Virus record (IMG/VR): IMGVR_UViG_2737471993_000002
Length of the DNA stretch: 64,000 nt
DNA from: a virus
Taxonomy: Duplodnaviria; Heunggongvirae; Uroviricota; Caudoviricetes
Reading direction: 5' to 3' (one strand)
The notes beneath the pieces were generated by a model, which was not told where the DNA came from, searched no databases, and saw nothing but the letters and a program-made list of their open reading frames with translations. Position numbers and translations under genes: made by a program. Shown piece after piece: positions 26,433 to 34,393 of this stretch. The stretch's first letter is position 1; the number at the start of each line of letters is the position of its first letter.

Positions 26433-28136
26433 TTGATACTAATGGAATCGATAGAATCATTTCTAAAAAATTTTCTAGTTTCAGATCATCGGGTTGCCGT
26501 CATAAAAGGAGATTGGGGCGTTGGTAAAACTCATTATTGGAATAGTTTTTATACTAAGCATTCTGAAGGATTAGATTTTAATGCATATTCGTATGTTTCT
26601 TTGTTTGGGGTTAACTCTATTGGTGATATTAAAAAAGCTCTTTATCATTGTGCCACACCAATTAATGAAAAGAAATATAAAGAACTAATTTTATCTGAAA
26701 CGGATCGAACTATGATTCGTTATAGAAATGGGTTTTTGGGATGGTTGAAATACAACTCCTTGTCAAAATTTTTAATACATTTCGGAAAGAACGATTTTTT
26801 TGGGTTCAAAACAGATAACCTGCTGTCATCTCTTGAGTATAAATTTGTTAATAATTATTTGGTTTGTATTGATGATGTTGAAAGAAAAGGTAATTCGCTA
26901 GAAGTTAAAGAAATTATGGGGGTAATTGATGAATTGGCAAGAAGAAAAGGCTGCAAAGTTGTTCTAATTTTAAATGAAGATAATTTACATGATGAAACTG
27001 CAAAAAAACAGTTTTTAGAGTACAGAGAAAAAGTAATTGATGTCGAAATAAAATATGATCCTACGCCTGAGAAGAACTTACGTAAAGTTTTTTATGAAAC
27101 TGATTCTGATTTTCTTTTGTTAAAAGTCTTAGCAAATGACTTAGGCATTAAAAATATCCGTATATTAAATAAAATAAAAACATCTCTGGTTAATCTTAGG
27201 AATGAGCTAAGCTTGGCAGAGGATAAGGTTAGAGAAAGTTTTATCAATAGATTGGTTCTGTTTTCAGTGGTTTACTATTCTGGTGTTCCAGGTGTTGATT
27301 ATGCCTTGTTTAAAGAATCAATTAAAAACATACATGTATTTGATTACATGTTAGATGATAAAAAGGATGATTCTGTATATTCATTTATTAATAGTCTTGA
27401 TATTATTTATGAACGAGCGGAAATTGCTTTCGATGATGACATAGATTTTTATCTCAAGAATGGTTATCTTTCTACTGAAAGCAATATTCGAGGTATAATA
27501 GAAGAAAAAAATAAACAATATAAAGAACACAAGGCTTTATGTGAGGTTAACAATGTTTGGGATATTTTTAGTGACTCATTCAAGGACAATGAATCTGAGT
27601 TTATTTCTAAGATAAAATGTGTAATTAACGACAATCTTTCACACATACCTGTTGCTCACTTCATAGGCTTGATTGATATCTTAAATAGATTGGAGATTGA
27701 TTGTGATAGTTATATAGAGGCATATGCAGATGCCTTTGTTAGCCAAGATGATGCTTATACTGCTTTTCGGAATTTGTATGTAGAGATATTTGGTAACGAA
27801 AAGTTAGGTCTGCTAATTCAAAAAAAATTGATGGATAAGAAGCCTGAAGAGACTAATTTAGAGAATGTTTTATACAAAATAATTGAAGGCAAATTTAATC
27901 ATAGTGACATAGCATATCTTAACAGTTTCTCTGAAGATGATTATTTAAAGTGGATATTATCCCGCAATCAGGATGCTTTGGATTTAGTGAGAAAGGGGTT
28001 GCTCAGATTCAAAAGTATGCAAGAACTAACAGAAGAACAGCAAAAAATCACGAATAAAGCAATAGGTGCATTAACGAAACTGGCCTCTAGATCAAGTCTT
28101 AACAAACTACGTGTGAGCAGATTGCTTAATAATTAA
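26433..28136 (+). CDS. KAP-family P-loop NTPase (AT-rich cargo gene)
   Basis: Walker A GDWGVGKTH and Walker B LVCIDDVER fit the KAP family. The gene is visibly more AT-rich than flanking backbone genes. Confidence 0.6.
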   Translation: MILMESIESFLKNFLVSDHRVAVIKGDWGVGKTHYWNSFYTKHSEGLDFNAYSYVSLFGVNSIGDIKKALYHCATPINEKKYKELILSETDRTMIRYRNGFLGWLKYNSLSKFLIHFGKNDFFGFKTDNLLSSLEYKFVNNYLVCIDDVERKGNSLEVKEIMGVIDELARRKGCKVVLILNEDNLHDETAKKQFLEYREKVIDVEIKYDPTPEKNLRKVFYETDSDFLLLKVLANDLGIKNIRILNKIKTSLVNLRNELSLAEDKVRESFINRLVLFSVVYYSGVPGVDYALFKESIKNIHVFDYMLDDKKDDSVYSFINSLDIIYERAEIAFDDDIDFYLKNGYLSTESNIRGIIEEKNKQYKEHKALCEVNNVWDIFSDSFKDNESEFISKIKCVINDNLSHIPVAHFIGLIDILNRLEIDCDSYIEAYADAFVSQDDAYTAFRNLYVEIFGNEKLGLLIQKKLMDKKPEETNLENVLYKIIEGKFNHSDIAYLNSFSEDDYLKWILSRNQDALDLVRKGLLRFKSMQELTEEQQKITNKAIGALTKLASRSSLNKLRVSRLLNN

Positions 28137-30520: not shown

Positions 30521-31702
30521 ATGAGCCTTTATGTTATATCAACATTTAGGTTGGTCACAATATTGCCTGTTAAAAGTGGAATTATCGTGAGCGAGCTGAA
30601 AGAGCTAATTGCCGAATTAGATTTTGAACAATGGTTGGATACTGAAGGTATCGTTTATCGACGTGGAGGCGTGAGTGCTCGCGGTCGTGAAGTGAATATC
30701 AAAGAGTGTCCGGTATGCGGCAGCTCCAACTGGAAGGTATATTTCAATCTGACCAGTGGCGTCGGTAAATGCTTCGCTGGTGATCATCCCGAAGAGATTC
30801 AGTTCAATAAGCTGGTCTTCCTCAAGCACTACAGCGGCAAATCACGACGACAGTTCGAGGAATATGTGCAGAACGCCCTTCTTTCCCAGGGGTGGGCACC
30901 AAAGAAAGAAGAGCTAGTGCTTGCAAGCACAGTCGAGTTAGAGGGGCCAGTTGCACTCCCTCGTCATTACGAGCTTCCTATAGATGGCCGTCTTCCAGAC
31001 TATCTGGTTGAACGAAACATATCACCTGAAATGGCAAAGTATTTTGACCTACGATACTGCGTCGAAGGCAAGCACGCTTATGTAGATCCGTATACAGATC
31101 AGGTAAAAGGGCAGATATTCGATATGCGAATACTGATACCGGTTTACGATCTGGATGGGGTAATGAAGACATTTCAGGGACGAGACATTACCGGTACAGC
31201 AGAACGCCGCTACCTCTTTCCTATGCAGCTTCCAGCTTCAGGTAAGTTTCTCTACAACGGCCATAATGCAGTCGGCAAACAGACTGTAGTTGTCTGTGAG
31301 GGGGCGTTCGATGTTATGGGGGTTAAACGAGCTATTTTTGACGAAGAAACATTACGTGATTACGTGGAACCAATAGGAACGTTCGGGATGCATCTATCTG
31401 GTAACACCACTCAGGATGCAGAAGATCAGTTAGGCGCGTTCCTGACGCTCAAGGCGCGTGGGTTACGTAATGTGATCATGATGTGGGATAGTGAAAAGCA
31501 AGCTATACGCAACACTATGGCCGCAGCCAGGCGACTGAGCAGTATTGGTCTTAATGTGAAAATTGCATGTTTGGGCGAGGAAGGACTCGACCCCGGCGAT
31601 GCGACCCCGGGGCAGATTATCAAAGCCTACTATTGCGCAAAACCTTACTCACGACAGCTTGAACTCTTAAGCAAGGTGAAAGGCATTGCAGCACTAGTTT
31701 GA
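30521..31702 (+). CDS. DNA primase (zinc-binding plus TOPRIM)
   Basis: CPVCGS...C zinc-ribbon-like motif and acidic TOPRIM-like segment (VVCEGAFDV...MWDSE). Start placed at the ATG following the shared AGAAAAACAC leader; the track ORF starts at 30449. Confidence 0.6.
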   Translation: MSLYVISTFRLVTILPVKSGIIVSELKELIAELDFEQWLDTEGIVYRRGGVSARGREVNIKECPVCGSSNWKVYFNLTSGVGKCFAGDHPEEIQFNKLVFLKHYSGKSRRQFEEYVQNALLSQGWAPKKEELVLASTVELEGPVALPRHYELPIDGRLPDYLVERNISPEMAKYFDLRYCVEGKHAYVDPYTDQVKGQIFDMRILIPVYDLDGVMKTFQGRDITGTAERRYLFPMQLPASGKFLYNGHNAVGKQTVVVCEGAFDVMGVKRAIFDEETLRDYVEPIGTFGMHLSGNTTQDAEDQLGAFLTLKARGLRNVIMMWDSEKQAIRNTMAAARRLSSIGLNVKIACLGEEGLDPGDATPGQIIKAYYCAKPYSRQLELLSKVKGIAALV

Positions 31703-32839
31703 ACCAGTATTAGTCACATACACATTGACCGAAAATGATTTAACTTCTGTATTGAAGTTGTCAGTCATTACCGCGAGGTAGGCATTCTTGGTATCTCTGA
31801 ATTGCTTCAGGATGATTTGAACGTTATCGGTGCAAACAAACGAGGTAGCCAGATTGCCTCCTTTCTCTGAAAAATCCTTCAGGAAGGTGCAGTCAACTTT
31901 GCCATCATTAGCGGTGAAGGTAGCATCATCACCCTGCCAGGTAAATGTAGCGTTAACGCCCTTATCAATGGATTTAGCAATAAGTCGCTGGGTGGCGGAT
32001 TTTGTTTTGGCTTTGGAAGCCGGCGCTCGATATTTGCCGCTTTCTTTCAGTTCTGCAATGTAATCGCAGCCTCTTTTTTCTCCTTTATCGCAAGCAGTCT
32101 GATAAAGGTCGGCTGCTTTTTTATAGTCCTTTTTTACACCTTCCCCATTCTCATACATAATGCCAAGATTGGTTATGGCGTCGGCGTTTCCAAGTTCCGC
32201 TGCCTTTTTATACCACTTAACTGCTTCTGCATCATTGCGTTTAACGCCTAACCCATCATCGTATAGTATTCCTAATCCTATCATAGCTTCTGAACTGCCT
32301 TGGTCTGCCGCCTTTTTGTAATAAGTAAAAGCCTTTTTATAATTCTTTTTAACGCCTTTACCATATTGGTAATACGCCCCAAGAACTGAAGTTGCTTTAA
32401 CATACCCGGCATCAGAGGCTAGTTTGAAGTATTTAATGGCGAGTGCATGATCTACTTTACCAAGCATCCCCTTTTGATAAATAGCACCAAGATTGTTGTA
32501 GGCTCTACCTTCACGAGCATCCCCCGCAAGTTTGTAGTACTCAACAGCTTTATTTAGGTCTTTATCTACACCCTCGCCAAATGTGTACATAACTCCAAGT
32601 GCATAATATGCTACTTTATCTCCCTTTTCTGCAGCTAGATCAATCCACTTCTTGGCCTCAACTACATCCTTATCAAAACCATTGACACCATCAAAATAAT
32701 TTGTACCTAACTCACTTTGTGCTGCGGTATCCCCTGCGGTAGCGGCTTCTATCAGCGTTTGTTTATTGTCTGCGTTAACGAATCCAGAGTTAAAAAGCAA
32801 AGTTAATGCCAGCAACGATGAAGATTTTATGTATTTCAT
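31694..32839 (-). CDS. secreted Sel1-repeat protein
   Basis: Signal peptide MKYIKSSSLLALTLLFNSGFVNA, about seven Sel1-like repeats, and a ~110-aa C-terminal domain. Convergent with, and slightly overlapping, the primase 3' end. Confidence 0.65.
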   Translation of the reverse strand: MKYIKSSSLLALTLLFNSGFVNADNKQTLIEAATAGDTAAQSELGTNYFDGVNGFDKDVVEAKKWIDLAAEKGDKVAYYALGVMYTFGEGVDKDLNKAVEYYKLAGDAREGRAYNNLGAIYQKGMLGKVDHALAIKYFKLASDAGYVKATSVLGAYYQYGKGVKKNYKKAFTYYKKAADQGSSEAMIGLGILYDDGLGVKRNDAEAVKWYKKAAELGNADAITNLGIMYENGEGVKKDYKKAADLYQTACDKGEKRGCDYIAELKESGKYRAPASKAKTKSATQRLIAKSIDKGVNATFTWQGDDATFTANDGKVDCTFLKDFSEKGGNLATSFVCTDNVQIILKQFRDTKNAYLAVMTDNFNTEVKSFSVNVYVTNTGSN

Positions 32840-33071
32840 GTTTTTTTTCTGTTGATATAGGATGAACAGTTTAGACGCGGCAAGCGTCAAGTGTGCGAAA
32901 AAGGGTACTTAAATTTAGTTAATATGTCAGCTTTGTTGATTTAGTTTATGGTCGGTAAAGTTACTGGGAAACTAATAACCATAAGAAATAGTACGCCATT
33001 TAATTATTGTGGCACTGCTCGTGTTTTGATTAACTAATACCTGCGATAAATATAAATAAAGGGAAGCCAAC

Positions 33072-33485
33072 ATGAGCAAAAATAAGCTGATTTTAACAGG
33101 AGCTTTATTGTCTTTGTTTGCTTTAGTGGGGTGTAAGCCTACAGACGAGAAGGCTATTGCTCTGGGCCAACAAGCAATTGCGGATGATATGAAAGATCCC
33201 ACGTCGGTGATGTTTAGGAAAGATAAGTTTGTCAGGACTGATCATGACGATGGGAGTGTGACAGGCTTTGTGTGTGGTGAATTAAACGCCAAAAATGGCT
33301 TTGGTGCATACGTGGGCTATCACTCATATGTTGTTGAACTCGAAATGAAGCCAAAGGGCATGTTTTCAAAAGGGGTGGTATACAAAATCCTATCGAAGTC
33401 GTTGGCACCTAATGATCCTCATGATTTACAGCGTTATAAGCAGGTCTACAGAAAGATGTGCAACAGTGAGGCTGTAGCTCATTAA
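33072..33485 (+). CDS. putative lipoprotein
   Basis: Signal peptide with lipobox LVGC; 137 aa. Confidence 0.5.
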   Translation: MSKNKLILTGALLSLFALVGCKPTDEKAIALGQQAIADDMKDPTSVMFRKDKFVRTDHDDGSVTGFVCGELNAKNGFGAYVGYHSYVVELEMKPKGMFSKGVVYKILSKSLAPNDPHDLQRYKQVYRKMCNSEAVAH

Positions 33486-33610
33486 AGGTGAATGCTGGGC
33501 TGAGGATATGCCCGGCATCTTAGTATAAACAACTATTGCACCTAAAATGATAAGTAGATACATACTTAAGTTTTTGTAAGAATACTTTCATCCGTTAGCT
33601 AGGAGTTGGT

Positions 33611-34393
33611 ATGAAAGAAGAAATTAAGAGATTAGCCTGCAACATCATTGATAAAACTGGTTTAGAAATCAGCGAGAGCAATCGGCTAGACATCATTGAA
33701 AAAGCCGTCAATACGGCAATGGATCATATCGCCACTCGTTTGGTCGAGATCCCTCTACCGGGGCTACCTTATCTGAAGGTTAAGTTGTGCGTATGGGGCG
33801 AACCTGCACATGCACGACGTTCTGCATTAGTTGTTTTTGTACGCAAAGAAAACTTACGAACTCTAAAAGTGCAGGTTGGGGCGTGGTTTGATGGCAGAGT
33901 CATCTATACAGATACCATTATCTGTCCTCCAGGTGACGAACATATTGAAGCCGTTATTCGAGAATCAATTCGAGCTATGCGTAGTTTAGCTTTGCTGGAA
34001 GACAAGCAAAACTTTGAAGATTACTTGCTGTCGGTAAAAGCTGAACCAACATTGTCTCTGAAAGCCGATTTCGTCACCCCGACAAATCTGTTGGAGGTTT
34101 TGATTAATAAAGGGGCTAATGATGCTGTAAACCTAATCAGGGAGAGCGAATATTCGACTCTTTGGGACATGTGCAAAAGCCAGTTGGATCTTGTGCATAT
34201 CATTGTTGATGCGGGTAAGGCGTGTGATGGCGTAATGGCGGAATTTGCTGGGAAGATGGTCAGGATTGCTAACGAATTACCGATGATAGAGCAAGAGGCC
34301 AAATCATACGCCACCAATCATGTCACAGAGCTTCTTGCCCCCTATCGCTTAGAAAGCGATCAGCGCAAGATGATTAGCTGGGGAAGTTGGTAA
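33611..34393 (+). CDS. hypothetical protein
   Basis: 260-aa ORF, no recognised motif. Confidence 0.5.
   Translation: MKEEIKRLACNIIDKTGLEISESNRLDIIEKAVNTAMDHIATRLVEIPLPGLPYLKVKLCVWGEPAHARRSALVVFVRKENLRTLKVQVGAWFDGRVIYTDTIICPPGDEHIEAVIRESIRAMRSLALLEDKQNFEDYLLSVKAEPTLSLKADFVTPTNLLEVLINKGANDAVNLIRESEYSTLWDMCKSQLDLVHIIVDAGKACDGVMAEFAGKMVRIANELPMIEQEAKSYATNHVTELLAPYRLESDQRKMISWGSW

Follow-up and report, generated by a model that had tools for sequence, protein, structure and literature searches.

Two independently distributed accessory genes with predicted envelope products share a variable slot beside the primase gene of an SSU5/pHCM2-type phage-plasmid of Escherichia coli

The viral record IMGVR_UViG_2737471993_000002 (Caudoviricetes; 64,000 nucleotides (nt), hereafter the window) is identified by sequence comparison as an Escherichia coli phage-plasmid of the SSU5/pHCM2 type, a class described in PMC7969092. 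Its DNA matches one E. coli plasmid of 111.6 kb at 100% identity; identity is 92-99% to numerous non-mobilizable plasmids of ~110 kb (typed, where examined, as IncFIB or rep_cluster_488) and to the phages PhiR41_1, Cyrano and CMS-2020a. Among genes for a DnaB-like helicase, a DnaG/Toprim primase and an ATP-dependent ligase, assigned from open reading frames (ORFs) and Pfam, lie two divergently oriented genes for a Sel1-repeat protein with a C-terminal beta-barrel and for a small lipoprotein. Both products are predicted from their N-termini to be exported to the envelope, and the two genes are tentatively read as separate pieces of phage cargo that share one variable slot and may protect the carrier. 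The features of the locus are given below; L numbers denote loci used for comparison.

31694..32839, minus strand: gene for a predicted exported Sel1-repeat protein of 381 amino acids (aa) with a C-terminal beta-barrel domain (ORF, Pfam, PHROG, RefSeq ortholog and the ratio of nonsynonymous to synonymous substitutions, dN/dS)
32771..32839, minus strand: Sec-type signal peptide, codons 1-23, predicted cleavage after VNA (read directly from the sequence, kept in homologs)
32078..32725, minus strand: six Sel1 repeats of 36 aa (aa 39-254), the most variable and mosaic part (Pfam; alignment with L034)
31697..31984, minus strand: C-terminal domain of ~96 aa (aa 286-381) with two invariant cysteines, predicted eight-stranded up-and-down beta-barrel, the most conserved part
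31694..31702, strand not applicable: convergent ends of the primase and Sel1 genes, overlapping by 9 nt; left insertion edge relative to empty-site relatives
32840..33071, strand not applicable: divergent intergenic region of 232 bp, AT-rich, presumed site of both promoters (composition)
33072..33485, plus strand: lipoprotein gene, 137 aa, lipobox LVGC with Cys21, predicted outer-membrane location and cystatin/NTF2-like fold
33492..33518, plus strand: GC-rich hairpin of 9 bp without a U-tract, just after the lipoprotein stop codon (RNA fold)
33535..33545, strand not applicable: approximate right edge of the ~1.85-kb segment that has no counterpart in empty-site relatives (window 31560-33680 against L001 6560-6860)

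The Sel1-repeat gene converges on the primase gene, whose final 9 nt contain the Sel1 stop codon, an overlap that is likewise annotated in L002, L004, L033 and L034. The maximal ORF covers 31694-32890 on the minus strand, with a TTG at its upstream end (32890), and the ATG at 32839 is the likely start because the RefSeq ortholog is 1146 nt long and homologs begin with MKF or MKL. From this start the protein opens with MKYIKSSSLLALTLLFNSGFVNA and continues with DNKQ behind the predicted cleavage site; by eye, two lysines, a hydrophobic core and V-x-A at positions -3/-1 can be recognized, in agreement with the initial annotation, which had described a signal-peptide protein on the minus strand, converging on the primase. 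In the Sel1-barrel copy carried by a Pantoea megaplasmid, a lipobox (LLGC) takes the place of the Sec signal peptide site; two other ORFs of 419 aa near this copy were rejected as paralogs, being unrelated membrane proteins.

The window protein is a Sel1-like repeat protein: Pfam Sel1 (PF08238) matches it with an E-value of 1.5e-53 and 177.8 bits (cut-off 30.7), with six scoring repeats above the gathering threshold, and strong matches to solved Sel1 proteins were obtained. The best named sequence relatives in the PDB are EsiB/c5321 (E 9.3e-65), LpnE (4.3e-56) and HcpC (2.1e-38), and phrog_8741, of unknown function, is matched over the full length. Capping helices, assigned by hand, flank the six repeats N- and C-terminally, so that an earlier estimate of about seven is fair; longer alleles of 417-420 aa have seven repeats. 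A PADLOC assignment of the protein as PtuA was rejected, since the match is local, confined to 40 repeat residues with 22 bits, and no stretch passes alone.

The last ~96-110 aa, which the initial annotation had left unassigned, match no Pfam or NCBIfam family. Structure prediction of this domain, the check proposed at that stage, yields an eight-stranded up-and-down beta-barrel in the AlphaFold model (predicted local distance difference test score, pLDDT, 82.8), in which the cysteine pair is probably disulfide-bonded. The domain is very rare and, among organism-named matches, restricted to Enterobacterales. A search with it returned eight representatives among 1.84 billion proteins, one of which was spurious: the eighth match, P0013, is a repetitive protein of 598 aa hit through a short 'VNGTFTWSGD' motif and was rejected. 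The longer matches carry the Sel1-repeat consensus upstream, and the shortest barely exceed the domain. Five loci were found among 185,579 species genomes and 24 contigs in IMG/VR, and the barrel is encoded on 91 plasmids (60 from Escherichia, 22 from Enterobacter, 8 from Citrobacter and 1 uncultured).

Several of these copies stand in phage contexts. In Leclercia, a frameshifted Sel1-barrel gene follows lambdoid tail-fiber genes; another copy lies at a prophage end, after a tail-fiber gene; and in a myovirus contig the gene is flanked by the tail tube gene and by an ORF of 582 aa that has no Pfam match and was taken as the tape-measure gene. In Pseudenterobacter, a copy is found among orphan CdiA fragments. 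The chromosome of Escherichia whittamii carries, in the yciB-yciA interval (L028 3300-7100), an IS3-flanked islet with a Sel1-barrel gene of seven repeats and a fragment of an SSU5-type primase gene; with IS3 and the primase fragment as flanks this was taken as a captured piece of a phage-plasmid and rejected as an independent non-phage context.

The small plus-strand lipoprotein gene reported in the initial annotation was recovered at 33072-33485. Its product begins with MSKNKLILTGALLSLFALVGC and continues with KPT; a basic n-region and a hydrophobic core precede L18-V19-G20-C21, which conforms to the lipobox [LVI][ASTVI][GAS]C, the signature of Lgt/LspA substrates. Lipoproteins are sorted to the outer membrane by the established +2 rule, and with Lys at +2 an outer-membrane location is therefore predicted. 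Single-sequence, word-indexed searches gave four close matches for each of the two proteins, and the lipoprotein family was reached only by profile search. It comprises at least 1,265 proteins from Enterobacterales, Pseudomonas, Vibrio, Comamonas and Paracoccus, with the conserved core KDPxSxxF...G.VCG.VNAKNxxGAYxG...C, in which C68 is invariant and C130 is at least 90% conserved. A lipobox is present in 94 of 120 database homologs and in 79 of 80 IMG/VR homologs. No Pfam or NCBIfam model exists for the family, and its proteins contain no Pfam domain except for occasional SPOR or PG_binding_1 fusions (5 of 78 members), which place the family at the peptidoglycan. A fold search of viral proteins in BFVD returned unnamed phage proteins only.

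Members of this family are usually found within tail operons, beside the tape-measure gene. At least 420 IMG/VR loci carry one, and the best 80 of these, forming 25 clusters at 70% identity, were surveyed for context: in 7-8 clusters the gene lies directly upstream of the tape-measure gene and in three directly downstream, four have it between tail genes K and I, five after ogr at the end of P2-like prophages, and two in the SSU5 slot. In many siphovirus prophages (e.g. L013-L016 6001-6342; L070-L116), a co-directional homolog stands between the tail chaperone (G/T) and tape-measure genes. A Vibrio prophage carries a homolog directly downstream of a CI-type repressor and beside an Ail/Lom gene.

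Comparison with related elements shows that both genes are accessory. About 1.85 kb (31690-33545) is extra in the window and has no counterpart in PhiR41_1, Cyrano and two CMS-2020a records. A gene of 260 aa begins 75 bp after the primase stop codon in PhiR41_1; in the window ~1.9 kb separates the two genes, and the last primase codons differ. The segment thus agrees with the moron definition of Juhala and Hendrix, summarized in PMC3594210, as extra DNA between genes that are adjacent in related phages; as regards composition, its difference from the window (41.1% against 45.9% GC) is weak. Conservation in all relatives combined with a requirement for lytic growth, which the initial annotation had named as the outcome that would contradict it, was not observed: both genes are dispensable for lytic growth because the isolated phages PhiR41_1 and Cyrano lack them. 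The whole segment was found on 50 of 395 plasmids matching the primase region and in 62 of 5,426 complete E. coli genomes, all 63 occurrences being plasmid-borne and none chromosomal.

The slot flanked by the primase and 260-aa genes exists in at least five states. It is empty in PhiR41_1, Cyrano and CMS-2020a; it holds the lipoprotein gene alone, co-directional with the primase gene, in Salmonella pZ1322HSL0038-2 and Cronobacter pCS1; it holds a Sel1 gene of 417 aa alone in Citrobacter and Enterobacter; it holds both genes in E. coli, with Sel1 alleles of 381 aa and 417 aa; and it holds an unrelated gene of 350 aa in pHCM2 of Salmonella Typhi, which marks the slot as a general cargo hotspot. 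The pHCM2 gene (L010 5905-6957, minus strand) shows no signal peptide on visual inspection of its N-terminus, and Pfam, NCBIfam and PADLOC give no match. In E. coli pE16EC1016-4 (L036 2400-2750), a deletion scar has left the last ~141 nt (47 codons) of the Sel1 gene beside the primase gene, so gene loss accounts for at least some of the 'empty' sites. The two genes also part company outside the slot: no Sel1-barrel gene was found at 76 viral loci outside phage-plasmids that carry the lipoprotein gene, no lipoprotein gene at the Sel1-barrel loci examined outside E. coli-type elements, and the 86 plasmids with lipoprotein relatives differ in genus mix from those with the Sel1-barrel. Given these independent distributions, a single co-inherited module was rejected; functionally, too, the two genes do not form one module.

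Homologs exist for both ORFs, and dN/dS is well below 1 among intact copies (0.12-0.23 for the Sel1 gene and 0-0.10 for the lipoprotein gene; 0.02-0.15 for the primase gene), so that both are real genes under purifying selection. The Sel1 gene is mosaic between the window and pGMI17-003_2, with sharp boundaries inside the gene: the parts on either side of a central stretch are 97-100% identical, and the encoded barrels share 99% of their residues. The central stretch (31937-32536), covering approximately repeats R3-R6, the cap and the linker, is only 59-77% identical and contains an indel of one repeat, 108 nt long (in the comparison with L034; L035 was also compared). The ratio of nonsynonymous to synonymous polymorphism (pN/pS) stays below 1 throughout the Sel1 gene, except for one comparison of the 23-codon signal peptide (2.6), and the mosaic therefore looks like allele exchange, not positive selection. 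This exchange appears, from the alignments, to be confined to the repeat array.

The composition of the segment was described earlier as moderately AT-enriched. The enrichment is real, and it is weak: the whole segment (41.1% GC) lies at the 8th percentile of same-size windows, ~1.3 standard deviations low, with 41.6% in the Sel1 gene, 42.5% in the lipoprotein gene and 34.5% between them. Promoters of both genes are presumed to lie within 32840..33071. Beyond the lipoprotein gene, the RNA fold of 33480-33545 (-21.3 kcal/mol, z -3.07) belongs to a stretch that is absent from the empty site, and the modeled hairpin at 33492..33518 is a possible weak terminator or RNA end.

The 260-aa gene downstream of the slot (33611-34393, plus strand) is hypervariable, has no Pfam family and matches phrog_4248, of unknown function; its dN is 0.11 between the window and pGD31-F25, while the primase proteins are identical, and ~0.55 against Citrobacter and Cronobacter elements. 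A KAP-family P-loop nucleoside triphosphatase (NTPase) gene of 567 aa (26433-28136, plus strand), with 30.6% GC and 25% GC at third codon positions, is a far stronger outlier than the segment; it matches the PADLOC candidate defense family PDC-S49 (E 1.8e-22), and relatives hold other genes at its position, e.g. for DUF2971 proteins. An ORF of 444 aa (38593-39927, minus strand) in an island of 33% GC scores 21.4 bits with Pfam putAbiC, a putative abortive-infection protein family, just under the cut-off of 22, and may be further defense cargo; a tyrosine-integrase-family gene (40527-41630, plus strand) adjoins it.

The reading proposed here, to which a rough probability of 0.4 is assigned, is that the two genes are separate phage morons sharing one variable slot, and that their products act as envelope proteins that would protect the carrier. 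The Sel1 protein would be soluble and periplasmic, with the repeat solenoid as a variable binding scaffold and the conserved barrel at its C-terminus; the lipoprotein would be anchored in the outer membrane, its cystatin/NTF2-like domain facing the periplasm. Both would be made in the plasmid (lysogenic) state and would bind something that enters the periplasm from outside. For the lipoprotein, this would most likely be the tail tip or the tape-measure protein of a superinfecting phage, hindered during genome delivery, and the outcome would be superinfection exclusion. The Sel1-barrel protein would most likely bind and block an incoming enzyme that acts in the periplasm, for example a peptidoglycan hydrolase borne by a virion or a toxin; this role is favored because the Sel1-repeat proteins IltA and EnhC inhibit lytic transglycosylases and the barrel shares the fold class of lysozyme inhibitors. 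Exclusion or conversion is suggested because the families sit in moron slots of tail operons, at prophage ends and downstream of a CI-type repressor. The initial annotation's proposal of a lysogenic-conversion or exclusion module in the envelope is supported in part: accessory status, predicted export and moron-like contexts agree with it and make a reading as envelope cargo reasonable, and the notion of one module is not supported. A bolder extension is doubtful: that the lipoprotein stands for a widespread, tape-measure-adjacent exclusion class blocking genome delivery in Gram-negatives, that the Sel1-barrel protein, as the first of its kind encoded by a phage, inhibits incoming peptidoglycan hydrolases in the periplasm, and that the two are stacked as a layered periplasmic shield in E. 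coli phage-plasmids.

Several observations weigh against carrier protection. Tail-operon placement is guilt by association, and in the window both genes lie in the replication region, not in the tail region. PADLOC gave no significant defense-profile match for the Sel1 protein or the lipoprotein, PHROGs lists both families with unknown function, and the PliC/MliC signature motifs are absent from the Sel1-barrel sequence. A scan with a strict sigma-70 consensus found no site in the 232-bp intergenic region. Copies broken by ISSen4 or IS1, frameshifted lipoprotein genes and a deletion scar also occur, which shows that selection for the genes is not universal.

Alternative explanations assign the two proteins to other partners. 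As orphan immunity proteins, the Sel1-barrel protein and perhaps the lipoprotein would neutralize periplasm-acting toxins of competing bacteria, delivered by type VI secretion systems (T6SS), contact-dependent inhibition (CDI) or as colicins. Klebsiella Sel1E, a proven T6SS immunity protein against VgrG4, has an uncharacterized C-terminal extension (PMC7108748), and the Pseudenterobacter gene lies among orphan CdiA toxin fragments; however, the domain search returned no organism-named Klebsiella or Pseudomonas protein, and the immunity-type Sel1 structure of Pseudomonas (5jkp) is matched with E 1.6e-12 against 8e-90 for generic Sel1 proteins. The mosaic of the repeat region between near-identical backbones also counts in favor, but with pN/pS below 1 apart from the one signal-peptide comparison it looks like alleles acquired by exchange, not like positive selection. 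No effector gene adjoins the Sel1 gene in the window or in the phage-plasmids examined, and a T6SS effector-immunity pair was rejected because its neighbors are the primase, lipoprotein and 260-aa genes, in relatives likewise. Toxin immunity would also leave the link of the lipoprotein with tail operons unexplained, and this explanation is considered unlikely. EsiB of E. coli binds secretory immunoglobulin A, and the two proteins could in the same way be host-interaction factors for virulence or colonization, the Sel1 protein acting on the animal host like EsiB, LpnE of Legionella or the Hcp proteins of Helicobacter, and the lipoprotein acting like the conversion proteins Bor and Lom of lambda. 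The closest named PDB relatives fit this picture, as do the sources of carriers (the gut of humans, livestock and birds, and infections outside the intestine) and the Ail/Lom gene beside the Vibrio homolog. The similarity to EsiB, LpnE and HcpC is, however, driven by the repeats and leaves the conserved barrel uncovered, the Sel1 protein has a Sec signal only and no evident route to the surface, and phages of environmental bacteria (Paracoccus, Comamonas and Pseudomonas) also carry members of the lipoprotein family. The sampled carrier lists mix Shiga toxin-producing (STEC), enterotoxigenic (ETEC) and adherent-invasive (AIEC)-type E. coli with isolates from healthy animals, food and water. A role in host interaction is regarded as rather improbable.

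A partnership of the two proteins appears very improbable. Here, the Sel1 protein would inhibit a lytic transglycosylase of the host and the lipoprotein would act as anti-inhibitor, so that a cell-wall enzyme is tuned as by IltA (Sel1-like, periplasmic) and LiiA (an outer-membrane lipoprotein), which control MltF (PMC10746161). The component types match, the genes are adjacent and divergent in the E. coli elements, and some lipoprotein family members have peptidoglycan-binding domains; yet in other genera the slot may hold either gene without the other, every locus examined outside phage-plasmids has only one of the two, and IltA has three repeats and no barrel. Hardly credible is the view that these are backbone genes for replication or lytic growth, or else decaying, non-functional DNA. 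Their position within the replication block, the overlap of the Sel1 gene with the primase stop codon and the disrupted copies would be in line with one or the other version, but viable phages without the genes contradict a required function, on which ground a replication backbone role was rejected, and export signals on both products and clear purifying selection on intact copies also speak against this view. Carrier protection by two separate morons is preferred.

Phage-plasmids of the SSU5/pHCM2 type are frequent in Enterobacteriaceae from patients and animals, and their effect on the host is set by the cargo they bring. Neither gene is mentioned in the literature found on SSU5 phage-plasmids or on phrog_2320. 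Phage morons that encode envelope proteins are an already known kind, and the lipoprotein family is unnamed. It is the more useful lead of the two, as a large phage family with a confident structure model and regular tape-measure adjacency, and a candidate for a new mechanism of phage exclusion in Gram-negative bacteria; the Sel1-barrel protein represents a rare domain architecture, found mostly on mobile elements. If neither gene altered phage or toxin sensitivity, they would be just two more hypothetical cargo genes.

Among known systems, the Sel1-barrel protein can be compared with periplasmic Sel1-repeat inhibitors, namely IltA, which inhibits MltF (PMC10746161), and EnhC of Legionella, which inhibits SltL (PMC5608400). 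IltA/LiiA and EnhC are encoded by chromosomal housekeeping or virulence genes and lack a C-terminal barrel, and the likeness considered here is one of repeat type; the Sel1 and lipoprotein genes of phage-plasmids are not obligate partners. With the PliC, MliC, PhiA and ACP barrels the fold class alone is shared, DUF4251, Cap15 and designed barrels reaching equal or better Z-scores; membership in the PliC/MliC lysozyme inhibitors was rejected, as there is no Pfam MliC match in addition to the missing motifs. Klebsiella Sel1E and Pseudomonas PA5086-5088 are toxin-neutralizing Sel1 arrays, from which the Sel1-barrel protein differs by the lack of an adjacent effector and by its generic repeat similarity. 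EsiB (c5321, of uropathogenic E. coli) is the best named E. coli relative with a structure; its solved chain is longer (467 residues), and the match covers query residues 26-254 of 381, i.e. the repeats and not the barrel. Orthology is not supported. In complete E. coli genomes, the Sel1-barrel gene is found on plasmids only.

For the lipoprotein, precedents exist in Ltp of phage TP-J34, whose binding to the tape-measure protein excludes phages (PMC3952083), and in Llp (T5) and Cor (phi80/N15/HK022); all three are phage lipoproteins that block entry, Llp and Cor acting on FhuA. Ltp, Llp and Cor are absent from the 60 best PDB fold matches of the lipoprotein and from its PHROG matches, and its family spans hosts with different receptors. 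The closest parallel in position is gp15 of HK97, a proven exclusion moron in the slot between the tail chaperone and tape-measure genes (PMC3594210). The first moron to be described, gp15 is a small, YebO-like inner-membrane protein, whereas the lipoprotein has 137 aa and a predicted cystatin/NTF2-like fold; the link drawn here is one of position, and the window gene lies in the replication region. What both have in common is that they are optional cargo with an envelope product, predicted in the case of the lipoprotein, and in many siphovirus prophages homologs of the lipoprotein occupy exactly the gp15 slot.

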